A DNA stretch of 64,000 nucleotides from Geosiphon pyriformis uo1 (taxonomy: Eukaryota > Fungi > Glomeromycota): NCBI GenBank assembly GCA_016748015.1, contig JAAOMT010000436.1:2275622-2339621 (forward strand), written 5' to 3'. The position numbers and the translations under genes are program-made. The notes under the pieces were generated by a model that was not told the origin of the DNA, did no database searches, and worked only from the letters and a program-made list of their open reading frames with translations. Below, one piece after another: positions 7,785 to 58,914 of the stretch; position 1 is the stretch's first letter, and every line of letters starts with the position of its first letter.

Positions 7785-9625
7785 TTACATTTGAGCTTGC
7801 TTATCGAGATCATCAGGCGCCGCATAATTTTCAACATGCATGTCATTTAAACCAAGGCTCTCATTTTCCTCCCATGTTCGTTTATAGGTTTCAATTACCA
7901 TATTGGGATCAGAATCTAAAGAGTATTGAGAAGAGGTTAGTTGGTTTTGAAATAGGTTGAGCTTTCCGACTTAAATCAGGATTAAAAACTTGAGAAAAGA
8001 AATAATCTATATTTATATTTACCAGGGGCATAAGGATTTTGTAAATATGAATTTGCTAATGGGTCATTTAGTATCAAATATACAGGAAGCATCGAGCCAG
8101 AAATAACATTATTCAAATTTTCTATGAATTTATCAAATTTTGCTCGACGTTCGTCTTGAATAGAGTCACCATGTGCAAAGGGAACTCGGGCTTTCAATTC
8201 TTCACATACTTGTCGCAATAATCCTTCTACTGTTGTAAATCTTCCACCTAAAGTCCCCGGTAATAATTCTAAATTGATCTCAGGTATGGAAAGGCCGCAT
8301 GTCTCGGATTTAAGAATATCTCGTGACATATCTTCCATATCCTCCATAAGGAGGGTTATTCGTTTTCCTTGAGGCGAGATTGGACCACCAGCCTTTACTT
8401 CATTTGATTTATATCCACAACTCTATTTGTAAAATTTATATGATTTAACTTAGGGAAACAGTTTCAATTGCATCTTTCAGAAATTAACCTACATCACAAG
8501 AAGTCGACATAATGACAACCTCTCTGAAATGAGGTATATTTATCACATGCATTCTTGTATCTGTTGGGGTATTACAATTATAGCAATTTGCTGGGAAAAT
8601 CATGACTTCGGGAATTTCTTCGTTTTCAACGTCCGTTTTATTTTCATCATCCTCTTCTTTTGGAGCATTCTGATTGTTATAACCTAAAGCGACTTCCATT
8701 TCTTGTGTTCGATTATAATGTAGAATTTTTATTTTAGGATCTGAATGTGGAGCACACAGATTCTCAATGTAGCTTTGAATTAAGTGAAGATACTTGTCAG
8801 ATTAAGGAGAATTTCAAAAATAACCAAAAAGTATATGTACCTGTTTCCAGCTGGGTCATCAATAGATACGGTAAAATTTTGAGTACCGTTGCGAAATGCC
8901 TCCAATTGCTCAAGTACTCTCTCGATCTTGTTATGGGTATCCTGATCCGTAAACTTTCGTGTGGATTGACCACTTGATAAATCTTCGATGATTCGAGCAA
9001 TCAGACCTTCAACTGTTGTCAAGGTCCCTTTTTGAGTATTTGACGATGGTAACTCAAGATCAAGTTCTGGGATTTTCACGCATGCTGTTTCAGATCTTAA
9101 AAGTTGTCGATTGAGATCTTCTTTTGTGAAAATTTCGCATGTGTAAATACATCCTTTTTCAGCGATCGATCCTGTAAATTGGACTTCGTTATTGTTAAAA
9201 CCACAGTGCTACAGTAAAATCAAAGGTTAATTGTTTTGTTTTGTTTATTGACTAATGGCAGGCCAACTTCTATAATAAACTTGCAAAGTTACCTCACAAT
9301 CAAAACTCATAATCACAATCTCTCGCCAATGTGGAATTTTTGTCAATAAAAGCCGTGTAATCCCCTGGTTTAAGAAAAAAGAGGGTTACGAATCTCTGAT
9401 TTGCTGCAAATAGACCAAGGTAAAATTGATGATTCTTACATTTTTTTCACAATTCATGCAATAACTCTCAATTTCTGTAGGTTTTCCGGTATCTCCTTGG
9501 TCGTTAGCAGCAGCACTGACAACATCACCAATGTTTTGAAAAAGTGCCTCTCTATTGTACTTTTTACTGTCAATATCAGTATCGGCTTGATCTCTACCTT
9601 CTCGAGAAAGGCATTTTTTAGACAT
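7785..9625 (-). CDS. ZPR1: Zinc finger protein ZPR1 (eEF1A chaperone), 6 exons, about 478 aa
   Basis: Exons 9440-9625, 9293-9364, 8841-9208, 8493-8772, 8023-8422 and 7785-7915, joined at GT-AG introns, give an open 1437-nt frame. Two ZPR1 repeats: [53 protein letters not shown] and NCYNC..[52 protein letters not shown]. Confidence 0.96.
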
Positions 9626-17221: not shown

Positions 17222-18765
17222 GACTGATAAACAATGGCTTCAACTAGGGGATCCTCTCCAAAGAAATTGATGTTGGCATGATTGGGTCTTTGGTTGGGGA
17301 CATTGTTGTTGTTGTTGGGTCTGTTGTTTTGGTTGTCATTGTTTCTGGGAGCTGGAGGAGGCAGTAGAGGATTGTTACAATCTCTTGAATAATGTCTAGT
17401 TAATCCACAATGATAGCACACAGGTGGGCCACAATTTTGCTGTCTTTGATAGGGAGGTTGATGGGACTGGTTAAAACAAAGTTTATATCTAGATCTTGGT
17501 AGTTGCTAGTTATTTCTGACTGCTTGTGCCAATGGTTCTAATAACCAGGCAAAGTTAGCTGTGAGTCTATCTATTAATTGTTCATTTGGGTCTTGGGTTT
17601 GGGCAGCAAAAGAAGTAGCAGCCATTTGAGGAGCAGTGGCCATGGCAGGAGCAGGAGCAAAAACTGGAAGTGTGGATCCCAGATGCATCCTTTGGTTATC
17701 TTCAATCTTTTGGATGAGTTCAATAGCCATGTCCATTGTAGAGTTGTCTTTCAAAGCCAAGAGAGGCCAAAGAGCATAAGATAAGTCAGTTCTCAATCCT
17801 TTTGTAAAGGAATAAATCTTTTGTTCTTCTGTCCAGTTTCTTCCAGAGTCTACTCGCTTGATTAACTTTCTGATTGCTTTGACATATTCGGTCATAACTT
17901 CACCAGGATCTTGGGTTCTTCTTTCTAATTCCATGTGCCACTTGGATATCAAGATTGGAGTTTTGAACTTGTTTTCAAACTGGATTGTAAAAAAGGTGTT
18001 GTTTTCTCTGGCATTTGCTGACATCCATCTAATAATTCTTTGATGAGCATTGGCATCAGTTTCTTGTGAGAACCAGGTAGCAAGAGAGCCTTGAAGGTAG
18101 CCACCAACAATTTGAAACTTGTACTCATCATCATATTGGTTGGCTGTAGCAGCTTTCTTAAAGTCATCCAACCATTCAATTGGATCTTGGGAATCACCTC
18201 TGAATAATAGTAATGGGGTGTTATTTCTTTGCCCTAAAGCAGTCTGTATATCTTGGAGGGCAATCAGAATGTTTTGTTGTAGAGGGTCTTAAGCCATTGG
18301 TTCAGGTGTAACTGTTTGTGTGGAGTGTTCTGATTCACTTGAAAAGAGATCAAAAACAGGAGCAGTTTGATAGCTTTCTTCTTTTGTTTCAAAAAGAGTT
18401 TCTGTTGATTGATGGACAGCAATCCAAATGTGGATTTGATGATTCAGATATTCAAAATCAGGGGGCTGTTGTTCAAAGGTTGCAAAATATAAAAGCTGAT
18501 TAATACTGTTGTTTCTTCCTTCAAAGTTGTCTTCAAAATAAGTTTGCTCAAAGTAATAGATTGTATAAGCTGTGTAGGTTTTAGCTGAATGCTCATTCAA
18601 GAACCAGTTTCAAAAGTCTTGGAATTGTCTGCTGGATTGTTTTTCAATGGGAAAGCAAATCAAGCAGGAGAGCAAAGGATTGAGTTCAATAAAGTCTAAA
18701 TCATTTTTGTTGTGTGCTTTAAAGTGTTCTTCTGATTGTTGTGGCAGGTATGAATAATTACTCAT
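17209..18765 (-). pseudogene. gag of A2 with CCHC zinc knuckle
   Basis: ATG 18765 is in frame with ORFs 18289-18600, 17506-18171 and 17209-17421; CYHCGLTRHYSRDC. Confidence 0.9.
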
Positions 18766-27200: not shown

Positions 27201-30200
27201 CATCTTCTGTTAGGTTGTGGATGGGGATTTTGAAGTGTTTATGGGCTTTGGCTAGTAGGTATAGATTAGCAACATCAGCTAGAGAACAGATTTTAGGACT
27301 GGCTTCAAATAACAGGGCTTGATCTTGGATCTTTTAATTTATCTTGAGGATGTATTGTCAGTATAGAGGAATGGAAATAATGATGTCAGTGTTTATAAAT
27401 TCTATTTGGTCACTGTTTTCTTCCATGAAATTAACTGGTACATTTCCTCTTCCACTTGATCCAAACCCATTGATTCCTCGGACAGTGAGGCCTAACTCTT
27501 TTCGGGTTGTTACCAGGATTAATTGGGGTATTTTGACTAGGGGTAGGAAGATAGCTTGGGCAATCTTTTCTTGTGATTCTATTTTGTAGAGTCTATCCAA
27601 ATTGTCCTGTAGCATCACGATAATGTTTCCCATGTAACTGGCATCAATGATTCCTTCTTTTACATCGATTTTTTTCTTGGCTAGACTAGATCGAGAGGCA
27701 ACTTGTATTATTGTACTAACAAAAATTTCTAACACTATCTTAAGATTTATTTTTACAAAGGAATGTGGGACTATAATAATAGATGATTGTCTGGGGTATC
27801 ATAGGTCAAAACTGGCATCAGTGTCATGCACTCTTTTGGGGCAGATTTTTTCTTCGTTTTCACTGTACCATTTTAGCTCTAGTTCTTTGAATAGATCAGG
27901 ATATGCGAAATACTGTTCTGTTTCAGTATCCTCAGTTGGATCTTGAAATGACATGTTCTCAGTGATCAATACCTCTTTTTCAGGCTCAGATAGTTCAGTG
28001 ATTGGAAACAGTATTCTTGGAGGCAGATTAAACATGAGATCACATTCATCACAGTACTGGAAGTGACAGAGGATCAAACAGTGATCACACAGTTTGGTAT
28101 TCAAATCAGCCAACCTTTGCTTCTGTTTTTCATAAGTTGGAGCCAATTTCTGATATCAGTTCTGAAATGTGTCTGGGTCATCTGTGAAAAAATCATCCTC
28201 GGGGTAGTCGGGTCCATTATATTTGGGCGTCCAAGAGTTGTTTTTGATTTCTCGTATTTCTTCAGACATAGCACCTTTGGCCTTGGTGCTTGCCATTCTC
28301 CAGATTTTATGATTATCATGTAGATAACTGTCCAGTCTGTTGAGTGCTTGTTTCCAAGTATCCTTGATGAGGGTTCCCTTTTGTACCCAATCATTGATTA
28401 ATATGGTGTATTGACAAATCTTGTTGCATGTTTCTCTTCTGCCAGACATATTATTCCAAAGTTCTTTATCTGGCAGGATTTTGCCACATGTGAGGCATGG
28501 CGTCCCACTTGCCTTATCGTTTTGGTCATCCAAATCTTTTCAGTAAACAAGGTCTGCAATAGTATTTGGTGGCAGTGGGCCATTCTTCATTGTTCCCAAT
28601 ACATGCGCCTATAGTGGATAGTTTTTTTCCACAATCAACACATATTAGTTTTGGGGGTTGGTAAAATAAGTTTTTTTAGTCCGAGGTTATGTATCCTAGT
28701 GATGACAATTGGGGTTCTTCTTCAGCTCTGCCTTTTTTTTTTCTTTCCAGGTTGGTGGTGGGGGTAGTTCAGTTTGATAATCATCCACCCATGAAACCTG
28801 ATAGGTCTCGATGGTTGGTAGCATTGATGTGTCTTCAAATTCAATAAGGGGTTCCTCAGTACATTGGGTTTTAAAGTGTCTACACGTAGTTGAGACTTGA
28901 GAATGCTGTCTGTTGAATGTGAGTTGAAGTTTTTGGGTGTTCCAGTTGAGAGTAGCATTGGCTTTTGACAATCAATTGTTTTCTACTAGAGCTTGATATT
29001 AAGTAGCTTCTATGATGAGTACTTTGGTAGGGATTTGGATTCTATTAATCTTGAAGGGGAAGTTGTCAATTTCTCCTATTGGGGTTTTTGTGTTTCCATC
29101 TGCTGTAATAATCCAAGCAGTAGCAGCACAGTCTACTTGGCAACCTAGTTGATTTATGAGCTGCTTCGTGATTATGCTACCAGCTGATCTGCTATTCAGG
29201 ATTAATTTAATGTTTATTTCTCTGACTCTGGCATCAGTGTATAGGGCCATTATTGGTTTATTCTGATTAATGACTGCTCCACTAAAAAGGCTATGGGTGT
29301 TTAAATTATTGATGTCAAAAGAAAATATGGTGGCTAGGATGGTGCCTTCAGTAATAGTGGCTGGTAAGATATTGCTTTTTGTTTGCTTGGAAGGTTAGGA
29401 GATTCGTTCTATATCCTCTCCTTTCACAGGTGTAGATTTATCAAAACCTTGGTCTTCTATAAGACCGAGATAGGAAGCTTGATTTGGGTATCCAGTTGGT
29501 GTTGATTGAAATTGGGCAGGACTGCAAGAGATTGGTCGAGACAGTCCACTGTTGGTTTGCACCTAATTGTTGTTGGGATTCCTTCATCCTTGATTATAGT
29601 TTATAGCTCGAGATCTGGATGGGCTGTAAGGGGAAGTTTGATAGTGAGAGATTGTTTGTGTCATTGGTGGTAGTTGATAATAATTCTGGGGCAGTGGTTG
29701 AGTGTACAGAACTTGTTGTGCATATAGGGGTGGTTGATTCTGAAGTATAGAATATTGGGGTACCATGTTTTGCTGATATCTGGATTGCTGGTATGGGTTT
29801 CTTTGATTTTGGTTCATGATCTTTTTTTTGCAGTCATGAGCGATGTGTTCAGATTTCTGGTAGTAGTAATAGTTGTGGGGATCGGATCTCCAAGATTGTT
29901 GCTGTTGCTAACAGTTCTGTTGCTGTGGATATCTGCTGTTGTTGTTATTTTCTCTCTGTTGGGGTGGTTGGTAAGTTCCTGTAGTTCTGGCTAAGAATTC
30001 CTCAATTTTCTGAGTTAGTTTTTCACTCAATTGGGTTATTTTTGCATTGATGTCAGAGGTTCCATTAATGGCTAAATTAACAGCTTGGGTATAGTTCACT
30101 TCTTGTTCTGCAAACTCAAAATCACAAGCAAAAGTGACGGCGTCTTGTAAACTGGTCAGATGGCAGGGTCTTACAGATCTTAGAATACTACTCCACAATC

Positions 30201-31407
30201 TTTTAATGAATTGATTAAGAACTTGTACCGCAGTGTAGTAGTCCCTTTCGATAACTAATATTTGACGCAGAATTTGATTGAATCGTCCGAGATAAGTAGT
30301 TACTGCTTCATGATCTTTTTATTTAATTATGCTGAATTGATTCTGCAATTGGATTAACATATTGGGGTCACAGAAGTATTGCAGAAATGCGAGTTTAAAC
30401 TCAGTGAAGAAGGTAGGCTTCTCTGCCAGACTCTGGTATCACGAATTGGTGGTTCTGGTCAGAAAAAATGGCAGTGCCTAAATTGTGTGGTTATTGTTTC
30501 AACAGTTGGCAGTAATTGCTTTCTCAGTGTTCACGATCCAAGAATATGTGTTATCTTTTTCACCAGAGAATTTTTCCAATTTAGCAATATCCTGGTAAGT
30601 CATGATCCAGTTAATGGGTGGAGTATTACTGATTATGTTTAAAGGGATTGGTGTCTGCGTATTCGAGTGTTCTCCAGGTGCTAATGCTGGTTGCTTTTCT
30701 TTGTCACTTGAACCAATAGGTTGTAAGATAGCTGTTTCTTCTATCAGGGGAGATGCTGATTCTGCTAAGTTTTGTGCTGGTGGCTGTTCCCAAGTTGATG
30801 GGTTTCCTTCTGTTTGACCGGCCACTGGAGTAAGATTTCCAAACAGCAATCTGTATTCTCCTAGTGATTTGGTCCAACTGTGTTGATTCCAAGGGTGTGG
30901 ATTTTTAGAAGTTTGTGGTGTTTCCAACTGGGTTTCCGGGGGTGGGTTGAATACAATTCTACTTTGGGGTGTCTGATGGTATAATGGAGTTGTTGGAGAG
31001 AGAATTCTTGGTTTTTTGTTGACCGTGGACTTGGCTTGGGCAGTTATGGGGTTGTTAGATTTGTTTTCGTATTCCTCAGGGTTGGATTTTACTGGTTGTT
31101 ATACTTGAGAGAATTGTTGTGCCACGTAATATTTAATGTCTATATCAATTATGCATAGAGTTTCAGTGATTGCTCAGGTAGTCGTGGCTGTTGAGTATCC
31201 TAGTAAGCTTTAATGGATTTGTTCTCTAAGTCTTCCTGTATTAGTTGTGTGGCCTAACAAGCAGTCAATTTTTGCATTGATATAGTTACAAAAATTACTT
31301 TCTGTGTAAGTGGTTTCTGCTAGTATTCCTAGGTCTTTTCGAAAGTATTAAAATAGTGCTTTTCCATATGAGGAGTGGTCCTTTCCTATTGTTCCAATAG
31401 TTGCCAC
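24246..31407 (-). pseudogene. gag-pol of B1 (Gag, protease, Cys-rich region, dUTPase, RT, RNase H, integrase)
   Basis: Fragments carry LEKFSGE, LILNSRSAG, DASFDL..SRSSLA..GIIDASYMG..IAQAIF..GFGSSG, YLDD and MDAS motifs. Confidence 0.92.
27450..27830 (-). pseudogene. dUTPase domain in B1 pol
   Basis: Trimeric dUTPase motifs 1-5 recognisable: DASFDL, SRSSLA, GIIDASYMG, KIAQ, RGINGFGSSG. Confidence 0.9.
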
Positions 31408-35500: not shown

Positions 35501-38500
35501 TGGTGTCTGGAAATTGATCTTCAATTTCTGTAGTCAGATATCCAATGGTGGTTCTTTCTGGTATCTTGATAATGTCTCCCATATTGTTGTAAATAGGGAT
35601 TTTGATGTGGCTGTGGTTTTTGGCTGATATGTGTAGATTGACTAATCCGATCTTTTCTGATTCACAAAGTGTTGCTTCTGCCTCAAAAATTTGAACCTAA
35701 TCTCTTACTTTTCTCTTTATGACTATCATATACTGATTATATAGTGAAATAGAAATTGATTAACAAGTGAAGATAATTTTTCTCTTGTCAATAATTTTTT
35801 CTTCTGCCATATTAACTGGTACATCTATTCTACCTGTGAATCCAAATCCTTATATCTCTCTAGCTGTGATCCCTAATTTTTCTCTGTTTCTTACTGATAC
35901 TAATTGAGCTACTTTTACTAGAGGTAGAAATATTACTTGTGCTATCTTTTTATTTGGATCTATAATATATGCCTTTTCTGAGTCATTTTGTAGTATAGCA
36001 ATGATATTTCCTATATATCTTGTGTCAATTATTCCTCCTCTGATGTTGATTCCCTTTTTGGCTAAGCTACTCCTAAATGCTAACTGAACCATTGTTGTTG
36101 CTAGAATTTTCAGTGCTATTTTGAGATCAATACAAGTGTGCGAATGGAATTCCAATTTGATAAAATCTTTTTTCAGATATCTCAGATCAAACCCTGCATC
36201 AATATCATGTATGCATTCTGGCATAATACCTTTATTATTATTGCTGAACCATTTAAGTTTCTGTTCCTTGGTGAGATTAGAGAGTGTAATGTATGTTTTG
36301 GGGTTTGAATCAGAGTTCAAATCACTATATTTTCTATTGTCATATTGAGCAGAGCTGGAACCATTGTTTTTGTCATTGTCATTGTCAGAGTTTGAATTGG
36401 AATTGAAAGTTGATTCTGATTCTGATGCGCAGCTGCTGATTGGTTTTTTTTCTTCTGAGATTGTATAGATCATGCAGATTGGTGGATTGTAAATGAGATC
36501 ACACTCATTATAATATTGAAAGTCACAGAGAATTAAGCAATGTTAACATAATCAAGTATTCAACTGCTCTAAACACTGCTCTTATTCTTTCTTAGTAGGT
36601 GTTAATTGTTGGTAATGTTCATGGAATTCTTTCAGATCATCTTTCATGTTACCAAAGACATTGAAGGTGAGAATGTATTCAGGTTTGGGCAGTGAGAGTG
36701 GGTTATTTTTAATTTCTAATAATTTGCTGGTAGTGGTATTTTCTACTTTCACACTCACCATTTTCCAGATTTCATGTTCATTGTGAGGATATTTTTCCAA
36801 TCATCACAACACTCTTTTTCAGGCATCATTAATTGGAGTTCTTTTGCAGACCTAGTTATTTATTAGGATAATATATTGGCATGTCTTATTGCACATTCTT
36901 TCTTATCTAGAAATGTCATTTCACATTCCTTTGTTAGACAAAACAGCTCCACATGCAAGACAAGGTTTGTTATCCCATTTTCTCTGTCTTTTTGGGCATC
37001 TAAACCATTCTATGACACATGAGCGACAATAGAACTTTGTTGCTGTGGAGTATTTCTTGTTATTGTCACAACATGCACTCATTGATGACAATTTCTTGCC
37101 GCAATCTACACATACTAATTTTGGTTAGTGATAATTAGATAGTAGTGATGAAAAATAGGCATATGGGCTATAAGTAGTGGTTAGTGTTGGACTTTCTTCT
37201 TCTTCTTTCCCCTTTTTCTTATTGTTATCTTCTTTCCACTCCTAAGTTATTAGTTTGTCCTAATTGTCATTGGTTACTTAAACTTGGTTGGCATTCCAGG
37301 TAGGTTCTTCTTTTTTTCTTGTCATCCCAAGAGAGTATTAGTGGTAGCTCATTGTAATCTTTATTGGCCCAGAAGACTTGGTAGGCTTCCCAAGTAAGTT
37401 TTTTTTCTTCTTTTTCGAACTCAATAAGTGGTGCTGTTGGCATGGTGATTAGCTTAAAGTAACCACATGTGGCTGGTACACGTATGTGTTAACCATTTTG
37501 ACTAAGCTAAAGCTCTTGGGTGTTCCAATTAAGTGTTACATAAGTTTTGGACAGCCAGTTATTGCCAATAAGTGCTTGGTACTGAATGGCTTCTATGACT
37601 AATATCTTGATCAGTACAATGATGCTGTTGACTTCAATGGGTAGGGCATCTATTTCACCAATTGGAGTCTTGGTGGCTTCATCAGCAGTAATTATCCTTG
37701 CACTGGCAGCTCAATCAACTTGGTAACTTAATTGGTCTATAAGTTGTTTTGTGATGATGCTGCCAGCTGATCTACTATCTAGAATCAGTTTGATAGAATG
37801 ACCATTAATTTTGGCATCAGTGTATATTGCCATGATGGGTTTTTCCTTGAATGCAACTCCACTGAACAAAGAGGTTTCTGTCGGTTCCTCAATTTCGAAA
37901 AAAAATATAGCTGCTAAGAACTTGTTTTCTATGATGGTGGCTGGTAGTATATTGCTAATAAATAATTTTTGGTTTGTTTCCAAGTTATTAGATGGGGCAT
38001 CTTCTGGGGTAACCAGGAGACTTAAATAGTTCTGGAAACTTGGGTTTTGAGTATACCCAGTTCTTGAACTTTACTGTTGTAATTCTAATGGCTGGTTGGA
38101 TGAACTGAGAATTAGTTGGTGGACAACCATTGCTGATCTCCAGTTTTGGGTAACTCTTAATCTAGAGTTTTCTGATGTCATTTGAGCTGGGTTTGATGGC
38201 AGTGTTTGAACTGTAAGTGTCTGATAAATTATTTGTAACTGCAATAGTTGATATATTACTGGTGCTGCTGGTTGATAGAATAAAGCTTGATATACTAGTG
38301 GTTGATAGATTGATGGCTGCATTACTAGTAGATAATTCAATTGATATATTTCTGGATTAGATTGATATCTTGGAGTCTAAAACTGGCAATTGGGATTTCA
38401 ATATTGATTTTCCAATTGTTGGTTTTCTATCCTTAACCTGCAGTCAATCTTTAAAGGTCCTTGTTTACTACAGTAGTGGCAAACACACATCTTTTGTTGC

Positions 38501-40156
38501 CACTGTTGATTGGTGGAAGATGATGAATGTGACTGATTCTGGAAACGATTCACGTTTTCTTGATTATTGCATTATTGTGGAGGTTGATAAATTGCCTGAT
38601 TGTTAGCTAAGTATCCCTCTAATTTCTGATTGATTGAGTTACTGAATTGTTTCAATTTGGAATCCAATTCAGATGATCCATTCATTACTAGATTAATGGC
38701 TTGGACATAATTAGCTTTGAGTTCAGCTGCTTCAAAATCTCTGGCATTTATAATGGTGGCTTGAAGATCTGCTGGATGCATTAGACATATGTGTTGGAGG
38801 ATACTACTATGCAGACCTCTAATAAATTGATTTAGAATTTGTGGCACTGTAAAATAGTCAGCCTGAATTGCCTGAATTTGGTGCAGATTCCTATGAAAGC
38901 ATCCTAGGTAAGTGGTGACTGCTTCATTTTCCCTTTGCTTAATAGTGGTGAAGACATTTGCCAATCGATTGATGCTATTATTATTACTAAAATATTCCAA
39001 GAATACAACTTTAAATTCTTGGAATGTTTGAGGTTTTGCGACTAAGCTTTAATACCATAAGTTGGCAGTATCCTGTAAGAAATAGGAGTGCTCTTGCATC
39101 ATTCCATCCATTGGCTGTAATAGTCTTTTCAATATTGTTGAGCCATATTTGGGCGTTATCTTCTTCACCAGTAAATTTCTTAAGTTTTGCTATTGAAGCA
39201 TAGGCCATTGGATCTAAGTTTAGTTGTTGAAGTTGTTGTTGCAATTGTTGAAGCAGCTATTGTGGTTGTTGGGGTGGTTGATCAGTAACAATTACTGGAG
39301 GTAAGTGTTATTGATTATTAATGTCGGGGTTTCAATCATTCCAATTTTGCTGAGTTTGAAAATTTGGAGTTTTGACTTCTGGATTTTCTAAATTTGGATC
39401 TTGCTAAGTCTAAAAGTTTGGGATTTTAATGTTTGGGTTTTCCAGAATTGGGTTTTGGTAAGTAAATTCTTGATTTTTGGCTTCTTTTTTTTCTTCCTTT
39501 TCTGATTCTGTTATCTCCCAAGGACTCACATTTCTGAAATCTGGTTGAGGTGGCAGTAATCGGAATTCTAATAGCATTAGCAATCGTGATTTAAATCCTT
39601 CAAAATAATCACCATAGGTTCCTAGTAATTCTGTTTTCTTTTGTTTACTTTGAAATGGAAGTCATCCAAATATTGATGTTATGTATGATGTGGACACGCC
39701 TGTTGATGAGATGTTAATAGTGCTTCTAGATATATAGTAGTATAATGGGTTTGTTGGTGATTCAACTCTGGTTTTTTTCCAAGTGGGTGGTTGTATTTGT
39801 TTTGGTGTTACTGCTGGTGTTTACAATCTTCTTTTGTCTTTGTCTGTGTAGATGATAAGGAATTGTTGTTGTGTATATCTTTCAATAGTTTGATTAATTT
39901 TCCTAATAATTGATACAAAACTGTAGTTTCTTGGTAAGCTGGTATGTTGAAATAATTCTGTATAGAAGTTTTTTCTTTCAAATTTAATGTCAACTGTTTC
40001 TCCTAAGAAGTCTGTAATTTTATTGTTAACATAAAAGTTAAAGACTGATTCTGCTGGAAAATGGTTATTGTTTAATCCTAATTGTTGGCTGTACTGTTGA
40101 AACAAGGATTTGGCAAATCCTAAATGGTTTGCTTCTATGATTTCTGATTCTGCCAC
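32594..40156 (-). pseudogene. gag-pol of C1 including dUTPase (about 35835-36215)
   Basis: Gag capsid-like region, LILDSRSAG, DAGFDL..GGIIDTRYIG..KIAQ, RT, RNase H and integrase fragments in order. Confidence 0.92.
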
Positions 40157-42437: not shown

Positions 42438-44931
42438 TGTTATGGTTGAAACTTATACTTCTTATTAAATATCACATGTATTAGCCACTGATGTCATATA
42501 AATTAGCCACTCTATTTTTAAAAAGTAATCATTGATCTAATCAATGACCTAACCAATGACCTGATTATTGACTTGATCATTGACCTAATTATTGATCTGA
42601 TCATTGACCTAGTTGTTGACCTAATTATTAACCACTTTTGATAGGTATATAAGCAATGAATTTTTTAGCTGTAGAAAAACATGTAAGAATCAAAAAAATA
42701 AAATAACAACTTCATCTCAATTCTTCTCTTATCACTAATTTCTTTTTCTCTACTTTCAAGTATCTGAACATCTTAAAGATAAAAGATTACTTGTTGGTTA
42801 TTCCCTACTTTTTCCTGAAATGTGTAATTGCAGTATTTAAAGACTATTGAATAAAACATAACTGAAGAATATATCTGATATCTGATATTGAATTCTAAGA
42901 GTGCCAATGTGTGACATAGAATTATACCAGATGTGATCATTTATTGACAGTACAGAATATCCTTCTACCTTTAGATTCTTTGGTTATCTTTAGAAAAATA
43001 CAATGACTGAGATATTTTATAAGATTGATCTTACATATTGAATCTATACTTATTTAATTTGCTCTTTGAAGTTGAGTTCTCTTTGATTCCTTTCATCACT
43101 CTACAATCCTGTTTTCTCTTGCTATCCATTAGCTTGTTACTCCAATCTGTAACATAAAAGTGGTGCTTCCTGTGAAGTTGTCAAATTCCACTTTGTTTTC
43201 TATTGTATGAATGATTATTCATACCTGCTGTTACTAGACAAAATTAGAGATATTATTTAGCATAAAATTATCTTTATAATTCCTATCATTAATTAGCATA
43301 TATTATTGTTCAAATTACTACTTATTACATTAGCAAAATATCCGAAATTATTATTTAATCAATAACCCAATTTGTACATAACATAAATATAACCTAATTG
43401 CAATGATCAATCATGCAATACCCCGAACTATGTAACATTCAAAAAGTTTGCCGAAATTTGTAGAAATTTGCCAAGATAATTGATAGTTTACCGAAATATC
43501 TAATAGTTTGCAGAAATAACTTGTAGTTCGCCAAAATGTATCTTTAGTTCAGCAAAATTGTAAAAAAAAGCAAAGTTCAAGTTCATAAAATAGTGTTACA
43601 ACAAGTTGTATAAAAGAAGAACTTCTCTCTTCAAGAAAATGTATCTTACCTCAGATTTAACAATTAGAATCATCTTTTATACACAAAAACAAAATAAATA
43701 TCAAATAATTTGAAAAATCAAATCCTTAATTATTTCCCTTTTAAAATTACCTAATTCCTATTAAACAGTTTTGAAATTGATTAGCTACCAATTTCAATAA
43801 ACTGTTAGTGACTTCAGACCTGGATAGAAAACGTTCTTTTGACAGAATTCTATTTCTTTTACATTTTTATTTTTATTTTTTTTCTTTTATTTTCTTATCA
43901 TAATCATTAGGGTAGCCTACAGACAAGATTCCTGTAGAAGAGTTGATTTTTACAGCAAAATAACTACACATTTTAGTGAACTTCCAGATGAGCAATTCCT
44001 GGGAAAGAGTTGATGTTTACTACAATGTAACTACACAAAGCAACTGGCATGGAATTGGCCATTCCACTTATAAGTCCAGCAGTTCAAATTATAAGAGATA
44101 ATTTGAAGATAAATTCAGTTATTGGAGGTTTAAACACTTTCCATAATCGTGAATTAACAGCATTACAACCAACATACAAGAGCTAAGAAGAGACCAAAAA
44201 CCTCCAGTAATACTGCCACAACAATCAGAAAAACACTTTGAAGCATACAACAAAAACAGACTTTATTGAACTTAATCCTTTGCCCTCCTGTTTGATTTGC
44301 TTTCCCATTGAAGAACAATTCAGCAGACAATTCCAAGACTTTTGAAACTGGTTCCTAAACAAGCATTCAGCTGAAACCTACACAGCTTATACAACTTATT
44401 ACTTTGATCAAGCTTATTTTGAAGACAACTTTAAAGAAAGAAACAATAGTATCAATTAGCTCTTATATTCTACAACCTTTGAACAACAGTCCTCTGATTT
44501 TAAATATCTGAATCATCAAATATACATTTTGGATTGCTGTCTATCAATTAACTGAAACTCTCTTTGAAATAGAAGAAGAAAGCTATCAAACTGCTTCTGT
44601 TTTTGACATTTTATTAAGTGAACTAGACTTATCCACACAAACAGTTATCTCTGAACCAATGGCTAATAACCCCATACAACAAAACATTCTAATTGCCCTC
44701 CAAGGCATACAAATTGCTTTAGGGCAAAGAAACAATACCCAACTACTATTATTTAGAGACAATGCACAAGATCCAATCAAATGGTTAGATGACTTTAAAA
44801 GAGCAGTCACAGCCAACCAATATGATAATAAATACAAGTTCCAAATTGTTGGTGGCTATCATTAAGGCTCTCCTGCTACTTGGTTTTCACAAAAAACCAA
44901 TGTCAATGCTCAACAAAAAATCATTAAATGG
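42438..44931 (+). mobile_element. Family-A element A3: 5' LTR (42438-43154), PBS and gag start; interrupted by a D solo LTR and by C2
   Basis: LTR with nine 12-bp units, TAAAAG+TGGTGCTTCCTGTG, gag (NILIALQGIQ..QDPIKWLDDF); left flank ATAT inside B0 integrase. Confidence 0.92.
43229..44212 (+). mobile_element. Solo LTR of family D, TSD CTGC
   Basis: Reverse complement of the D1 LTRs; CTGC at 43225-43228 and 44213-44216; no PBS or PPT alongside. Confidence 0.93.
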
Positions 44932-47900
44932 TGTTACTCATAAAAAGAAAACAGATATAGAAAATAGCAGACCAATGAGAGAATAGTATTTAGCACATGA
45001 GCACATTGCTTAACAATGTGGAGCAATGTCAGAAAACACAGCACATTGCTTAGCAATGTGGAGTGATGTTAGAAAATTAGAGCACATTGCTCAAGAAATC
45101 ATAGCACATTGCTAGGAAATATGAATGATCTCATAGAACATCAATTATGTATATATAGCAGTAGTGTTAGAAATAGAAAAAAAAGAAATCTTTTAGTTAG
45201 AAATCTCCCATTCATAAATATTGAATAAATAAATTATTTACCATCCAAATCTACTCTTTACTATCAACACTCCATGTTGATAGCAATTGATACTTAACCA
45301 CACTAGAACAATAGCTCTTGATTATGGCTATTGATAAATACTAACTTGCATATTGTCTTGGCTCATTTTTTTATACCATTTCTTTTATTTTCTTGTCTTA
45401 ATTGTTGTTATTACTAACTCTATTGAGGATTAACATGCGGAATACTGACGTCAGAATATAGCACTAGTAAAAGACCCAGAAATAAGGGTAGAACACTTGA
45501 TTGAGGTTAGCTTATCAGAAGAAATACTGGCCATCACGCTAAGAAAAAAATTGATGAAACTGCAGTTTCAGGAAGTTACAGATAAAACTATTACTACTAA
45601 ATTTCTGTCCATTATACAAAGGACTCAACCAAAAACCTTCAGATAAACACACCTTCAGATTTCTATTATTGACAACAGCCTTGAACACCAAGTTACGGAT
45701 TGCTATTTACTTTAACAACCAAATAATCACCTGTAATATTTGATGCTTCTTGTAAAGTATAATCCTACAGAGAACTAGTACCAACAAATAAATCAACAGT
45801 AGTAGAATCAGAAAGTATAGGAGCAAACCATTTAGGATTCATGAAATTCTTATTTTAACACTACTGTTAATACTTGGAATTGAACCACAATCAGATATCA
45901 GCAGAATCAGTCTTCAATTTCTACATCAACAAAAAAATTGCCTATTTGTTAGGAACACCAGTAAACACTAAATCAACAAGAAAAACTTTTTACCATGAAT
46001 TAATCCAAAACACCAGCTTATCAACAAATTATAACTTTGCATCCATTATCACTAAGATTAATAAGAAAATTGAACATCACATACAACAAAGATACCCAAT
46101 TACTTATGCAAGTAAAGACAAAGGAAAATTACAAACACTGGCAGTAACACCTCAACAGATCCAACCACCCACTTAGAAGAAACACAGAATTGAATTACCT
46201 ACAAATCCATCATATTATTATACTCCTGGAAGTGCCATCAATATTGCATTAGCAGGCATGTCTACATCAAATGCGATATCAACATTTGAACAATTTCCAT
46301 TCCAAAGTAAACAAAAGAAAGAAGATTTACTAGGACCATATGGTGCATACTTTAAGGGATTCAAATCGAAATCACCAATGCCATCAAGAGTTTGATCACC
46401 ACCATCTCAACCAGATTTCAGAATTACTGATCCATAGAAACCAACCAAATCGGAAAAAGAACAAGAAAAAGAAGAGGAAAAAAAATCTGAAGATCAAGAA
46501 TTTACTTATCAGAATCCAATTACTGAAAACCTAGATATTGGAACCCTGAATTTTCAGACTCAGCAAAATCAAAATCTAGAAAATCCAGAAATCAAAACTC
46601 CACCAAATCAGAATGACCAAAATCCTAACTTAATTAATCAATACAATTTACCTCCAAATATTATCATTGATCAGTCACTAATTGAACTGATTATTGAACC
46701 GATTCAACAACAGTAAATACCCTTTCAACAGCCACCACTACAGCAACTTATCCAGCAACTGGTTCAGCAACTGCAACAACCACTTCAACCACCAATACAA
46801 CAACAGCAACTGATCGCACCAATGGCTTTTGCACCAATCACAAAACTTGAAAAGTTCACTAGTGAAGAAAACAATGCCCAGGCATGGATTAATGATGTCG
46901 CCAAAGCCATTACTACAAACAATTGAGATGATGCAAGAACAATGCAAGTCATTCTATATTTCCTAAAAGATACTGCTAACTCATGGTATTATAGCTTGGC
47001 CCAGAAACCCCAAAATTTTAATGCATTTAAAACAGAATTCCTAAAATATTTTAGTAATAATAATAGCATCAACCACTTGGCAAGTACTTTCATCACCCTA
47101 AAGCAAGGGAACACAGAAGCAGTCACCACTTACTTAGAATGCTTCCACAGAAATCTGCACCAAATCCAAGCTATCCAAGCTGATTACTTTACAGTGCCAC
47201 AAATTTTAAATCAGTTCATCAGATGTTTACACAGCAGCATACTCCAACAAGTACATCTGATATATTCAGTAGACCTTCCTACCACAGTCACTTATGCTAG
47301 AGATTTTGAAGCTGCTAAGTTAGAAGCCAACCATGTCCAAGCTGTAAATTTAGTAATGAATGGATCATCTGACTTGGATTCTAAACTGAAACAATTTAGT
47401 GATTCCATTAATCAGAAATTGAAGAGATACTTAGTTGACAATCACCCAATTTATTAGCCTTCTCAACAACATAATAATCAGGGAAACATGAATTGTTTCC
47501 AAAATCAGTCATGTTCATCATTATCAACAAATCAGCCATGATAACAAGAAACGTGAATTTGCCACAACTGTGGTAAATAAAGTCACTTTAGAGCCAATTG
47601 CCATGCTTATAGTAATCCATGATCAGAAAATCAATATCGGAATCCTGATTGCCGGTTCCCAACTCCAAATCATTACTTGAATCAAAATCAATATCAATCT
47701 ACTTACCTGCCAATGACACCACTGCCAATCTATCAAACACTAGTATATTAATCTTAAATATATCAACTGCAGCCACTCATGATATATCAACTGCAGCCAC
47801 AAATAGTTTATTAACCACAACAATCAATTCAAACACTGTCACAAAATTCAGCTATGATAACATCTGGAAATCCCAGATTCAGAGTAAACCAAAACTGGAG

Positions 47901-51568: not shown

Positions 51569-52986
51569 TGTTATGGTTGAGACCTATACTTCTTATTAAT
51601 TATCACATGTATTAGTCACTGATGTCATATGATTAGTTATACTATTTTTAGAAAGTGATCATTGACCTAATCAATGACCTGACTATTGACTTGACCATTG
51701 ACATGATTATTAATTTGATCATTGACCTGATCATTGTTCACTTTTGACAGCTATATAAGCAATGAATCTCTTAACTATAGAAAAGCATGTAATAACAAGC
51801 ATCTGAATAATCAAGAATAAATAAAATAACAACTTTCATCTCAATTCTTCTCTTATCGCTAATTTCTTTTTCCCTACCTTCAAGTATCTGAACATCTTAA
51901 AGATAAAAGATTACTTGTTGGTTTTTTTCTGATGTATATAATTGTAGCATTTGAAGATTATTTGAATAAACATGACTGAAAAGCACAAGTTGATATCTGA
52001 TATTGAATTTTAAGAGTGCTAATGTGAGACATAGAATTATACCAGTAGTAATTAATTGTTGACAGTACAGACTATTTTTTTACTTTCAGATTCCCCAATT
52101 ACCTTTGAAAAGAATAGTGACTGAGATATTTTATGAGACTGATCTCGCACATTGAATCCATACTCATTCAATTTGCTCTTTAAAGTTGAATTTCCCTTTT
52201 GATTATTTCTATTATCCTACAATCCTGTTCTCTCTTGCTATCTGTTAGCTTGTTACTCCAACCTGTAACATAAAAGTGGTGCTCCCTGTAAGGTTGTCAA
52301 AATTCACTTATTTCCTCATTGTATGGGTAATTATTCATACTTGCCATAGCAATCAGAAGAACACTTTGTAGCACACAACAGAAACAATCTAGAGTTTATT
52401 AAATTCAATCCTCTGCCCTCCTGCTTGATCTGTTTCCCTGTTCAAGAACAATCCAGTAGACAATTCCAAGACTTTTGGAACTGGTTCCTGAATGAGCATT
52501 CAGCTAAAACCTACACAGTTTATACCATTTATTACTTTGATCAAGCTTATTTTGAAGACAATTTTAAAGAAAAAAATACCAGCATTAATCAGCTCTTATA
52601 CTCCACAACCTTTGAACAACAGTCCCCTGATTTCGAATATCTGAATCACCAAATCCATATTTGGATTGCTGCTCACTAACTAGTTGAAAACTCCTTTGAA
52701 ACAGAAGAAAAAAGTTACCAAACTGCCCCTATTTTTGATATTTTCTCAAGTGAATTAGAGCACTCCACACAAACAGTAATTCCTGAACCAATGGCCCAAA
52801 ATCCAATGCAAGCAAACATTCTGGCTGCCCTCCAAGGTATACAAACTGCTTTGGGCAAAAAAACAACACTCCACTACCATTATTCAGAGGCGATGTACAA
52901 GATCCAATTGAATGGTTGGATGACTTTGAAAGAGCAGCCACTGCAAACCAGTATAATGATGAATACAAGTTTCAAATTGTTGGTGG

Positions 52987-55900
52987 TGTTACCAGAGGTT
53001 TTTGGTCTCTTTTTTTAAATGTTGTTGATGCTTGTTTGCTGTGAATTCATGTTTTCTGGATGTGGTTGAACCTCCAATAACTGAATTTATCTTCAAATTA
53101 TCTCCTATAATTTGAATTGCTGGGCTTATAAGTGGAATGGCCAATTCCGTGCCAGTTACTTTATGTAGTTACGTTGTAGTAAATGTCAACTCTTTTCCAG
53201 GAATTGCTCATTTGGAAGCTCACTAAAATGTATAGTTATTTTGCTATGAAAGTCAACTCTTCTACAGGAATTTCTTCTGTAGGCTACCCTAATGATTATA
53301 GTAAGAAAATAAAAAGAAAATAAAAAAAATATAAAAGAAATAGAATTCTGTCAAGAGAGACGTTTTCAATCCAGGCCTGGAGTCACTAACAGTTTATTGA
53401 AATTGGTAGCTAATTAATTTCAAAACGTTAGTTGGGTTTTGAAGATTTTCCAAGTGTAATAATTAAAGAATTTGGTTTTTCAATTTATTTGATATTTATT
53501 TCTTTTTGTGTGTATAGGAATGGTTCTAAGTGATAAATCTAAAGTAAGATACATTTTCTTGAAGAGAGAAGCTCTTCTTTTATACAACTTGTCATAACAC
53601 TATTCTATGAACTTGAACTTTGCTATTTTTTACAATTTCATTGAACTAAAGATATATTTTGGCAAACTACAAGTTATTTCTGCAAACTATTAGATATTTC
53701 GGTGAACTATCAATTATTTTGGTGAATTTCTACTAATTTCAGTGAACTTTTAAATGTTACATAGTTTGGGATATTGCATGATTGATCATCACAATTAGAT
53801 TACATTTGTGTTGTGTTCAATTTGGGTTATTAATTAAATGATAATTTTGGACATTTTTGCTAATGTAATAAGTGATAATTTGAAATGATAATATATACTA
53901 ATTAATGATAGGAATTATAAGATAATTTCATGCTAAATAATATCTCTAATTTCATTTGGTAACATAACCTTCTCCTCAAAACTGAGCTCCGTTGAAGTCC
54001 AAGTACTGTTTGTCATTTCCAGATAATAATTCAAAATTATTGAAAAAATTTCGTCTGAAAATTGTTGAAATTTCAGTTCTGTGTATTAAGAGCTATATTA
54101 ACTGGAACTGTGAATCATCCAGTTGAACCAAAACCTTGGGTTTTTCTATCGCTTTTTCCTAATTGTTCTCTTTGATTGACTAGTTGCAAACCCGAAATGT
54201 TGATTAAGAGTAGGTAAATAGTTTGGGCAATTTTTTCAGCATGTTCAATCTTGAATAGTTTGTTAGTTTCATTTTGAAACATCACTGTAATGTCTCCAGT
54301 ATATTTGGCATTGATTATTCCTCCTCTGACATTGATTTCTTTGCTTGCCAGAGAGGACCGGGAGGTGATTTGAACTATTGCTCCTGGTAGGATTTCGAGT
54401 GCAATTTTGAGGTTGATTTTTGTGAAAGATTTGGGTTTGAGAACAAAAGTATCCTTGCCTGGATATCTTAGGTCATATCCAGCATCAATTTTGTGTGCTT
54501 TTTTAGGTTTTATTCCTTGTCCGTTGTTGTTGAAGTATTTAAGTTGTAAGGCAGGCTGATTTTTGATAAGGTAGATAAGTGTTGTTTCAATTTCTTCCAT
54601 TGCTTCAGGTTCTCTAAATTCAATTTCATTCTCATCATTTTCGCTAGGCAAGGGGATACTAAAAGCGTAGCATTCAAGACACTACTGTTCATTGCAAGGC
54701 ATAATGCATTCTTTACATAGCCTAATGTTCATTTGCTCTAATCGTTGAATTTGAGCTTTTTGGGTTGGGTAGGTGTGACTTGCAATTTGGTGGTAGACTT
54801 CTACTTCATCTTCGTAATTGAATCCAGCTAATTCCATGGTGTATTCAATGTATTCTGCTTCCTTCATTTGACAAACATCTTTTTTGGTAGCTCCATTAAT
54901 TAATGCCATTGCTAGATTGAAAATTATCTCAGCATCATAGAAGTAGTAATAAAGTTTGTTGAGAGCACTGTTGTATGCTGCATTAAAGAGTGTTCCTCTT
55001 TTTACTTTTTCCGAAATTGATAAAGCATATTGACAGGTCTGATCACAGACTCTTCCTCTCATGGCTACATCAATCCAATTGCATTCTTCCAGTAGCATAT
55101 CTCCACAAGTCAAACAAGAGATGTTGTCCCATTTTCTGCTCCTTTTTATTAGATGGCCCCATCGTTCTCTGTGGCAAGTCTTGCAGTAATAACAAGTATG
55201 ATTTTCATATTCTTCTTCAGGTAAAATACAGACTCCTATTGATGATAGTTTCTTGTGGCAGTCCTTACATTTAAGGGGAATATAGGGGCATTGTTTCCTT
55301 GGTTTGGGTTTTGAGTAAGGGATATTCCATCCAGAGGTTTCGGGTTCAGAGTGTGGGGTAAAATGTTCTTGTTCTTTCATCGGCCCAGTTGAACATTGAT
55401 CCAAGAGCCATGAATGTTTCAATGAGGGGTTTTTCCTCTTCCAGTTCGAATTCAAAAGCTGGGGCTTTTTCAAAGCGTTTGTTGAATATACCACAAGTGG
55501 TAGGTATTCAGGTGTGTTGTCCTTGGTAGGAAATTGTTAACTCTTGTGTTTCCCAATTCAGATTAGCATTGGCTTTTTGAAGCCAATCATTTCTGATGAA
55601 AGCTTGGTACTGGGGTGCGTTCATTACAAGAACTTTGACTGGAATGGTAATTCCATCAAGAGTGAATGGAAAATTGTCAATTTCTCTTACTGGGGTCTTT
55701 TTCATGCCATCGGCAGTGACAATTACTGTTTGAGCTGGTCGGTCAACATTTCTCTTCAATTGTTGCATTAACTGGTAGGTGATAATGCTTCCGGCGGATT
55801 CACTGTCTAGGATCAAGTGAATTGTTTTTCCTTTGATTTCTGCTTCAGTGTACATAGCCGTGATTGCTTTTTGTTTATTGGCGGCTGCATTGTTAAACAG

Positions 55901-58900
55901 GAATGGTGACTCATTTGCTTCAAACTCAAAAGGGAATATATCTGAAAGGTTAGCATTTTCAGTGATTCTGGCTGGTGGGATTGTGATGAGAGTATAGGAA
56001 GGATTTTGTTGTTGTGCTGCAGCTCTACCTTCTGAGAGTACAGTATAGTGAAAATCCTGTTCTTCTGGCATTGTTAAATAACTGGATTGAGTGTGGTAGT
56101 GGTTGGGTCTTGGTTGAGTGGAATTTCGGAGAACCAATTGGTTGTTCGAACTGATTCTATTGTTGTTTACTTGGTATCGGTTTTGTGATGTGAATTGATT
56201 TTGTGTAATCAGTCTTTGAGTAGGTACTTGATAATATTGTGTGGGTGGTTGTTGGTATTGCTGTTGGATTGACTGTGAGGCGGGCTGATAATAGTTATTT
56301 TGGTATTGGAGTCTTGGTCAATAGTAAGCTGGTGATGGTAGTTGATAATAAGATTGCTGTGGTGGAGGGTAACGTTGATTACTTCTATTTTGTTGGTCTC
56401 ATTGTAGCTTTCTGCAATCTCTTTTCCAGTGGCCAGAGATTCCACAGTAATGGCAATTCTGCGGCTGGTTATTGGAAAGTGGTGCAAAGTTATTTTGATT
56501 TCATCTTTGGGGTGGTTAATATCTTTGGGGTTGCTGTTATTGTTGATTGGTGAAATAGTTTTTAATCTTCTTTGTGAGTTGGTCAATTTTTTTCTCAGCT
56601 GCTAAGCTGGTTTCTTCAATTGCCAAATTTACAAGTTTTGTGCAATTGGCCTTTTCCATGACCATTTTGTATCTTTTCGCATGCTGTATGGCAGAGTTTA
56701 AATCTTCTGGCACATGTGAGCGAACCTTTTTAATTAGTTTATCTTTTAGACCAGTAATAAATTGATCCAAGATTTGAGCATCAGAATAATAATCATTTGT
56801 TTCGAGTTGGTGAATTTGTCTAAGAAGTTTGTTGAATTTCCTAATATAAGTCATAACAGATTCGGAGGGTTCTTGTTTGATATTTTGAAAACGGTTGTGA
56901 AGAATGATGGAGATATTATTGTCAGTGAACTGTTCAAGGAAGGCTGCTTTGAAAGCGTTCCAATCATTGAATGGGGCGGCCAAGTTTTCAAACCATTCTC
57001 CTGCTGTTCCTTTAAAAAAGTAGGGAATTGTTCTTAACATTCTGGCAGTATTCCATCCATTTGCATCTCCAGCTTTAGTAACTTGGTCAAGCCATTCTTG
57101 GGGACTGGTCTCAATGTCTTCTCCATTAAATTCAGGGATTTTTGCAATGTATGTTGTCATTTCATCTTCTTCGTTCTCACTGTCTATTGATTCTTCCTCA
57201 GATATTTCAGGTTTGTTTTCTTCGTTCGCTGCTGTCTCAGAGTGTCCACTTTGATTTTCAGCTAGAAAGTCAAGGAGATTGGAACTAGTTTGAAGGGGTT
57301 CTTGTTGTCTAATGGGACTTCTGAGTGATGTAAAATCTTCTGGGCTTGCAAATCAATTCAAGGGTGAATTAGGTGTTTGTGCTTGTGCAAATAAAGCTGG
57401 AAAAGGTGTGATAGTAAGTGGAAGTTTTGAACTGGTTCCTTGTTCAGGTGTTTGTAAATGGTTGGCAGTTGTTTTTGGTAGTGTTGGAGTATTTGGGGTG
57501 GTTCTTGAGTATTGCTTCAATTTGTTTTTGCCTTTGTTGCTTGTTTCTGTTTCCGATTTAAAATCAATAGTGTATTGAGACTGCACTGGATATGTTTTTT
57601 TACAGTATCTGATAATGTTAAAATTAAGTTCATGGAAGTAAGTGGCAAGTGTTTTACTGTTAAGGTCTTCAGTTCCCAACTGTGAATAGTGTGCTAAATT
57701 ATTGTAAAGGTTGCTTCTAACTTCTGAGATATTGTAATTTCCAAAAAGATAATTGTTGATGCGATTTTCAATGTATTGGTATACTGATTTCTTAACAACT
57801 TCAATTCCGTCTGGAATGTTGAATCTTTGCTTGCAGTGAGTGTAAATTGACTGGTAATACTTTAGAGTTGTTGTGTCTGGTGTGGTTGCCACTTTGAAGT
57901 TGTTTTTGCTGTGTTGTTTTCGTGGGAGAGCACCAAATGTTACCGGAGGTTTTTGGTCTCTTTTCTTAAATGTTGTTGATGCTTGTTTGCTGTGAATTCA
58001 CGTTTTCTAGATGTGGTTGAACCTCTAATAACTGAATTTATCTTCAAATTATCTCCTATAATTTGAATTGCTGGGCTTATAAATGGAATGGCCAATTCCG
58101 TGCCAGTTACTTTATGTAGTTACATTGTAGTAAATGTCAACTCTTTCCCAGGAATTGCTCATCTGGAAGCTCACTAAAATGTATAGTTACTTTGCTGTAA
58201 AAGTCAACTCTTCTACAGGAATCTCGTCTGTAGGCTACCCTAATGATTATAGTAAGAAAATAAAAAGAAAATAAAAAAAATGTAAAAGAAATAGAATTCT
58301 GTCAAGGAAGACGTTTTCAATCCAGGCCTGAAGTCACTAACAGTTTATTGAAATTAGTAGCTAATTAATTTCAAAACGTTAGTTGGGTTTTGAAGATTTT
58401 CCAAGTGTAATAATTAAAGAATTTGGTTTTTCAATTTATTTGATATTTATTTTTTTTTGTGTGTATAGGAATGGTTCTAAGTGATAAATCTAAAGTAAGA
58501 TACATTTTCTTGAAAAGAGAAGCTCTTCTTTTATACAATTTGTCATAACACTATTCTATAAACTTAAACTTTGCTATTTTCTACAATTTTACTGAACTAA
58601 AGATACATTTCGGCAAATTACAAGTTATTTCTGCAAACTATTAGATATTTCAGTGAACTATCAATTATTTCGGTGAATTTCTACCAATTTTGGTGAACTT
58701 TTGAATGTTATATAGTTTGGGATATTGCATGATTGATCATCGCAATTAGGTTACATTTGTGTTGTGTTCAATTTGGATTATTAATTAAATGATAATTTCG
58801 GACATTTTTGTTAATGTAATAAGTGATAATTTGAAATGATAATATATACTAATTAATGATATGAATATAAAATAATTTCATGCTAAATAATATCTCTAAT

Positions 58901-58914
58901 TTCGTCTTGTAACA
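52987..58914 (-). mobile_element. Family-D element D1 (5.9 kb), lacks RT, RNase H and integrase; TSD GTGG
   Basis: 3' LTR 52987-53964, 5' LTR 57938-58914, PBS TGGTGCTCTCCC, PPT GAGGAGAAGG; GTGG at 52983-52986 and 58915-58918. Confidence 0.96.
54060..57892 (-). pseudogene. D1 polyprotein: Gag (CCHC knuckle), aspartic protease, Cys-rich region, dUTPase
   Basis: IAKIPEFNGED, CHYCGISGHWKRDC (56414-56455), LILDSESAG, multiple CxxC, DAGYDL..SRSSLA..GGIINAKYTG..QGFGSTG; one frame apart from transition stops and one small frameshift near 55375. Confidence 0.92.

Follow-up and report, generated by a model that had tools for sequence, protein, structure and literature searches.

The 64,000-nt stretch of the Geosiphon pyriformis genome analyzed here, referred to as the window, is a cluster of nested LTR retrotransposons, in which matches to the families of capsid, protease, dUTPase, reverse transcriptase, RNase H and integrase follow one another in Ty3/Gypsy order. 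LTR sequence is reported to make up 41.2% of the G. pyriformis genome (PMC11952901). By the LTRs, capsid and protease of D1 and the domain order of C1, these elements are Ty3/Gypsy LTR retrotransposons (Metaviridae). A dUTPase stands behind the protease in families D, C and B (54115-54681, 35850-36542 and 27358-27798), the order in element B1 being protease (a weak match), dUTPase and reverse transcriptase. A host ZPR1 zinc-finger gene lies between the retrotransposons at 7982-9208 on the minus strand. The features of D1 and the corresponding positions in the other copies are as follows.

52987-58914, minus strand: element D1
57938-58914, minus strand: 5' LTR of D1 (TG...CA), 95% identical to 52987-53964
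52987-53964, minus strand: 3' LTR of D1, partner of the 5' LTR
58077-58083, minus strand: putative TATA-like box of D1, ~145 nt before the LTR end
57924-57935, minus strand: primer-binding site of D1, TGGTGCTCTCCC, 2 nt behind the LTR
57893-57923, minus strand: A/C-rich leader of D1 without ATG; leader length and phase vary between families
57890-57892, minus strand: GTG of D1, putative start of an N-extended Gag, with A at -3 and G at +4
57569-57892, minus strand: predicted helical domain of D1, about 105 residues, common to families B, C, D and E
57161-57568, minus strand: low-complexity, AUG-poor linker of D1, gag frame open except for one TGA at an Arg column
57158-57160, minus strand: conserved in-frame ATG of D1 before the capsid, putative start of a short Gag
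56645-57028, minus strand: capsid domain of D1 (Retrotrans_gag, E 1.9e-15; Ty3_capsid, E 6.5e-9; both above cut-off)
55619-55846, minus strand: aspartic protease of D1, in the capsid's frame (Asp_protease_2, above cut-off)
54118-54507, within 54115-54681, minus strand: dUTPase of D1 (domain match)
31405-31407, minus strand: GTG of B1
30601-30603, minus strand: capsid-proximal ATG of B1
40154-40156, minus strand: GTG of C1
39206-39208, minus strand: capsid-proximal ATG of C1
38572-39048, 35850-36542, 34459-34851 and 33221-33898, minus strand: gag, dUTPase, reverse transcriptase and integrase of C1
4973-4975, minus strand: GTG of C0
4049-4051, minus strand: ATA of C0 at the capsid-proximal Met position, decayed
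45799-45801, plus strand: GTA of C2 at the homologous site, decayed
46822-46824, plus strand: capsid-proximal ATG of C2

D1 is flanked on both sides by the 4-bp target-site repeat GTGG, and its primer-binding site starts with TGG, as is expected of Ty3/Gypsy elements. The LTRs of families B and C contain similar TATA-like boxes, 127-161 nt before the LTR end. D1 runs through gag, protease and dUTPase and then ends, without reverse transcriptase or integrase; it is probably a non-autonomous insertion in an element of family A.

The first-pass annotation had proposed that gag begins at a conserved GTG, and the AAA-GTG-GCA that it read in D1, C1, C0 and B1 is present at all four sites. Each of the five sites, that of C2 included, lies in the capsid frame. 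C2 reads ACA-GTA-GTA, as had been noted, but the description of this sequence as decayed is right for GTA-GTA only; the ACA before it is the state of a C subfamily, whose leader ends NKST-V in several gene models. Likewise, the statement that no ATG lies between the LTR end and the GTG holds in D1, B1, C1 and C0 and fails in C2, the leader ATG of which is the product of a change inside its primer-binding site. The 8-mer AAAGTGGC occurs six times in the window against 2.1 expected, a number reached in 2 of 100 shuffles, and this count is by itself weak evidence. The strength of the site comes instead from its position and its surroundings: four of the six occurrences lie 45-62 nt behind an LTR end and in the capsid frame, and the site is a short stretch in which 8-10 bases agree between families with largely unlike flanks. 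Across the five copies, the distance from the LTR end to the site is 45, 62, 62, 62 and 60 nt. The GTG at the head of the gag frame is a real feature of these elements.

Is GTG also the ancestral state? The residues at the site were pooled from motif matches among 415 protein gene models; these counts, like those below, come from the gene models of one genome and from one pile-up, and all copies are decayed. Val occupies the site in 124 of 136 D-type, 109 of 134 C-type and 26 of 29 B-type matches, and in 7 of 7 from a fourth family, E, outside the window. Family E (P0410, P0413, P0414, P0415 and P0416) emerged from a profile search; it is about 30% identical to C, begins K-V-A-T, and shares the K-V-A start, the domain behind it and a basic motif. 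Among 120 D models the site holds Val in 106, Met in 4, Leu in 4, Ile in 1 and Ala in 1, with 4 models starting one codon later; the next codon gives Ala in 75, Val in 32 and Thr in 7, as a GCG in decay would. A pile-up of DNA from family D (2890 contigs, run X1) agrees with this picture of the next codon: variant depth reaches 43% and 21% at 57887-57888 and 6% at 57890, these figures being drawn from the rows listed and applying to family D only.

We considered whether GTG might have arisen from ATG or GCG by the decay of dead copies. CpG decay is strong in these elements, and 21 of the 134 matches of C type and 5 of the 136 of D type have Met at the site. These Met counts are biased by the gene predictor, which favors ATG and invents introns; 14 of the 21 C-type cases begin the model, so that their preceding context is unseen. 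C>T prevails among the mutations of both strands and is strongest at CpG, where 45 of 97 transitions between sister LTRs lie in B and 11 of 44 in D. ATG as the ancestor would require ATG>GTG, a change that opposes the C>T/G>A bias, and Met is both a minor state and linked to CpG. Where the preceding residue is seen in C, Met stands behind Asn (AAC|GTG, which contains a CpG) in 5 of 12 cases and behind Lys in 2 of 95 (Fisher p=1.4e-4), so that ATG is the derived state. The direction of the bias given in the first-pass annotation, from GTG to ATG and not the reverse, agrees with this, but the route from GCG to GTG under C>T had been overlooked. GCG as the ancestor was rejected on the Ala counts: Ala stands at the site in 1 of the 120 D models, which joins there from unrelated sequence, and is dominant at the next, GCG-type codon. 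With Val dominant in four families, we regard an origin of GTG by decay as barely credible.

The mutational process itself deserves a remark. Transversions account for 3 of 47 differences in the LTR pair 57938-58914/52987-53964 and for 2 of 99 in the pair 31470-32551/22335-23416, and the transitions often lie outside CpG (in CpA, CpT and CpC). Since the differences between paired LTRs are almost only transitions, many of them outside CpG, a strong cytosine-deamination process acting in all contexts is suggested.

The start context, called optimal in the first-pass annotation, is indeed kept. Val is preceded by K, T or N, which puts an A at -3, in 109 of 109 matches of family C, 119 of 124 of D and 26 of 26 of B; positions -2 and -1 vary (AAA, AAC, ACA) while A at -3 stays, and the residue after Val is mostly Ala, giving G at +4. 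Non-AUG starts are described as needing a strong context (PMC3542737), a reporter screen is said to show about a fivefold rise in initiation at GUG with G at +4 (PMC5778536), and N-terminal extensions from near-cognate codons are reported to be made in Neurospora (PMC5487733). We looked for a stimulating hairpin behind the GUG and found none in any of the five copies (z -1.27 to +0.38).

An AUG farther upstream, either in the LTR or spliced to an ACAG in the leader, could in principle supply the start and reduce the GTG to an internal Val codon. An ACAG-like word does precede the GTG in B1, C1, C2 and D1, many gene models seem to enter the gag frame at this word, and the D1 frame is open for 35 codons upstream. 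Nevertheless, the word lies 16, 23 or 29, 30 and 28 nt before the GTG, that is, in all three phases, and the leader contains no pyrimidine tract. The C subfamilies differ in leader phase as well: the leaders of C models are read in three phases (79, 10 and 4 of 115, with 22 unclassed), these classes being subject to the same predictor bias as the Met counts. A leader whose phase is not conserved argues against an upstream or spliced AUG. Moreover, no conserved ATG lies behind the TATA-like box; each LTR ATG found there is confined to a single copy, and in most cases the sister LTR has ACG or C-GTG at the same place. An upstream origin of the frame is in our judgment quite improbable.

The stretch between the GTG and the capsid is also shaped like a protein-coding sequence. 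Over the five extensions, the gag frame contains 26 stops, compared with 90 and 96 in the other frames, and for 25 of the 26 the aligned residue in relatives is Gln, Arg or Trp. In the C copies, the first 105 codons show a third-position excess (25/24/47, 27/25/37 and 24/21/34), a signal that is weak in the linker. Judged by these sequence signals, the extension is under coding constraint, clearly so for the first 105 codons and weakly for the linker. A profile built from three families finds the held-out family with a median of 35-62 bits, against 9.3 for the best shuffle, and the matches have a median start at profile position 1-5. N-terminal identity between families is 19-30%; D is the most weakly linked of them, with an hhalign probability of 15-66% in pairwise profile comparisons. 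The best of five AlphaFold2 models of the domain is helical (pLDDT 82, pTM 0.78; the other four have pLDDT 54-60).

Searches with the domain of about 105 residues gave no clear match, whether to a retroviral matrix, to another Gag N-terminal domain or to anything else, in Pfam (lowest E 0.012, reached by 1 of 9 members) or in three fold libraries, including Foldseek with the domain models (nothing at E<=0.001), and the best fold comparison by VIA had Z 6.8 and rmsd 3.9 over 106 aligned residues; this does not show that the fold is new. Among the matches listed, no relative came from outside G. pyriformis (best 120 of 366, 120 of 125 and 77 of 77; 10 looked up), and no relative from another species had Met at the site (best 150 of 203; 10 looked up). 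A metagenome scan yielded 287 pattern matches and no relative, and the ESM Atlas gave no usable match. Behind the domain, 49 of 120 models of family C, 10 of 26 of B, 2 of 6 of E and 0 of 129 of D carry a basic motif, KKxRxxSP; we take its KKxR to resemble a nuclear localisation signal. No ER signal or membrane segment was detected in the least decayed copies, D1, B1, C1 and C2, in which the highest 19-residue hydropathy is 0.6-1.04, and the value of 2.05 in C0 arises only in its decayed, Gln/Pro-rich end. Two gene models join the extension to host-type domains, P0201 to PF02170 and PF02171, presumably of the Argonaute family, and P0128 to PF00025 and PF00071, presumably of the small-GTPase family; both are likely annotation chimeras, and possibly cases of exonisation.

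It might be argued that only the capsid AUG is used and that the whole stretch is an untranslated leader, in which AAAGUGGC serves as an RNA element for primer annealing, packaging or dimerisation. The motif is near the primer-binding site, family A has a AAAAGTGG that overlaps its own primer-binding site, and the depletion of AUGs described below would suit a leader that is scanned. An untranslated leader would not, however, be expected to hold an open frame of 244-341 codons with a third-position excess and 19-30% protein identity between families; the motif tolerates AAA, AAC and ACA, keeping just the A at -3, and no shared fold was found. We therefore consider this explanation very unlikely.

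The first-pass annotation had set three results against its own proposal: ATG at the site in young intact copies, a spliced upstream ATG, and protein conservation beginning only at a downstream ATG. None of these was found. Met is a minor state among the gene models, the leader phase gives no sign of a spliced start, and homology begins at Val or within a few residues of it. The GTG is thus likely to be a conserved non-AUG start of the gag frame.

A second putative start, absent from the first-pass annotation, is also conserved. The first conserved in-frame ATG lies directly before the capsid, 244 (D1), 268 (B1), 316 (C1) and 341 (C2) codons from the GTG site, and 72 of 79 models of D, 54 of 56 of B and 50 of 63 of C have Met at that position; the family C capsid AUG has C at -3. 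The interval between the two starts is poor in ATG. Over the five copies, it contains 26 ATGs in 4416 nt, compared with 51.2 expected, and none of 500 shuffles gave so low a number, whereas the region downstream of the capsid-proximal ATG contains 194 in 9600 nt. Relative to downstream, ATG is the most interval-depleted of the 64 triplets (observed/expected 0.51 versus 0.93); the control triplet CAT also falls short of its shuffles (74 versus 106), but is equally low on both sides (0.69 and 0.69). The depletion covers all three frames and stops at the conserved Met, whose reach CUG and GUG do not share, neither being found depleted there. C0 taken alone lacks the ATG depletion, in a count made with the boundary 49 nt too far. 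Most of the leftover ATGs in the interval are at positions where relatives show CpG decay, and NAY|G junctions with CpG-type hypermutation account for 13 of 16 in the interval versus 13 of 38 downstream (p=0.002). Since the leftover ATGs of interval and LTR are mostly of the decay type or private to one copy, the active ancestors likely had few or no AUGs from cap to capsid.

How are the two starts related? The simplest proposal, that the GUG is the sole start, the polyprotein is made at a low level and the capsid Met is an internal residue or a protease site, accommodates all the evidence for the GUG itself, and as gag and protease share one frame, a single start could serve both. Yet it does not predict a depletion of AUGs that extends over three frames and ends at a conserved Met, and most ribosomes are described as passing a non-AUG codon and starting at the next AUG (PMC3542737), here the capsid Met. 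We regard a sole start at the GUG as rather unlikely. For the same reasons, namely the conserved capsid AUG and the interval cleared of AUGs, limitation of polyprotein output, the purpose suggested in the first-pass annotation, is probably not the main point. The conserved AUG and the cleared interval together point to leaky scanning and two Gag isoforms, a minor long Gag started at the GUG and a major capsid-first Gag started at the AUG, a reading to which we assign a probability of roughly two in three on sequence grounds. What leaky scanning calls for is present: a near-cognate codon in strong context, an in-frame AUG and an AUG-poor interval between them. Non-AUG starts are indeed described as inefficient and, in most cases, as one step of a leaky-scanning scheme that leads to an AUG farther on (PMC3542737).

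Under leaky scanning, ribosomes would be loaded within the LTR, past the TATA-like box, and scan onward; a small share would start at the GUG and the rest would pass on, with selection keeping the interval of 0.7-1 kb free of AUGs so that they reach the capsid AUG. The long form may then co-assemble into the particle as a minority subunit, and we speculate that its extra domain is displayed on the particle surface. The N-terminus of Gag in the Schizosaccharomyces pombe element Tf1 is reported to govern nuclear import (PMC7175516), and the N-terminus of the Ty3 capsid is described as running outward (PMC6525542); because of these two precedents, extended subunits, present as a minority, could have a role in nuclear entry. 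In families B, C and E, the long form might aid nuclear entry or targeting through the KKxRxxSP motif.

Several known systems resemble this arrangement in part. Extended forms of Gag are made from a CUG in murine leukemia virus (MLV) and from a weak AUG in feline leukemia virus (FeLV) (PMC3542737). The glyco-Gag of MLV is like the putative long Gag of families B-E in that leaky scanning past a non-AUG codon, which is in frame with the Gag AUG and upstream of it, would yield an N-extended isoform, but the families here use GUG rather than CUG and are fungal Ty3/Gypsy elements. Their extension comprises 244-341 residues with a predicted helical domain, and with no hydrophobic or membrane segment in the least decayed copies; unlike MLV glyco-Gag, it would therefore not be an ER-targeted glycoprotein. 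The retrotransposon-derived human gene PEG10 is reported to be translated from both a CUG and an AUG (PMC2800197), and so shares the upstream in-frame near-cognate codon; according to that source it is a domesticated host gene gaining 34 residues from its CUG, whereas here multi-copy mobile families would gain a whole domain. In rice tungro bacilliform virus (ORFs I-III), about 895 nt are described as free of other AUGs (PMC3542737), and a non-AUG first start followed by an AUG-free stretch lets ribosomes reach the capsid-bearing frame, as proposed here; that virus is described as using AUU, shunting and separate ORFs, in contrast to one frame with two nested starts. Tf1/Tf2 and Ty3 share the Ty3/Gypsy capsid, and gag and protease occupy a single frame as in Tf1. 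The excerpted texts of PMC7175516 and PMC6525542 describe no non-AUG start or long pre-capsid domain for them, and the families here differ from both in carrying the dUTPase between protease and reverse transcriptase.

Family A appears to have a weak AUG like that of FeLV. Its gag ATG is found at the following positions.

18763-18765, minus strand: family A gag ATG
52323-52325, plus strand: family A gag ATG
43207-43209, plus strand: family A gag ATG

All three copies have U at -3, a weak context; a second ATG lies 468 nt on, with 1-2 ATGs between. The N-terminal region of family A shows no detectable kinship with the B/C/D domain (probability 0.55%). At its primer-binding site, family A also has a GTG in AAAA-GTG-G that opens a short out-of-frame ORF, and this ORF ends on the gag ATG (ATGA) in two of the three copies.

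Extensions of Gag from non-AUG codons have already been described for gammaretroviruses and PEG10; among the matches listed in a literature search by title and abstract, there is no report of a GUG-started Gag in an LTR retrotransposon. We propose tentatively, the case being nearly balanced, that in a fungal Ty3/Gypsy radiation the choice of start codon is all that fixes the proportions of two Gag isoforms: at least four GUG families, with 19-30% N-terminal identity, may add an undescribed helical domain and a nuclear-import motif to a minority of capsid subunits, and a sister family may do so with a weak AUG. If this is true, a strategy like that of glyco-Gag evolved in a retrotransposon that has no envelope, and transposition would be tied to the host's stringency of start-codon selection. 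The domain, overlooked by AUG-based annotation, would belong to the replication kit of these elements, and hundreds of G. pyriformis gene models that are joined to the gag frame from unrelated upstream sequence would be accounted for. Hidden Gag isoforms may thus be sought by a rule: a near-cognate codon separated from the capsid AUG by a stretch that contains no AUG.
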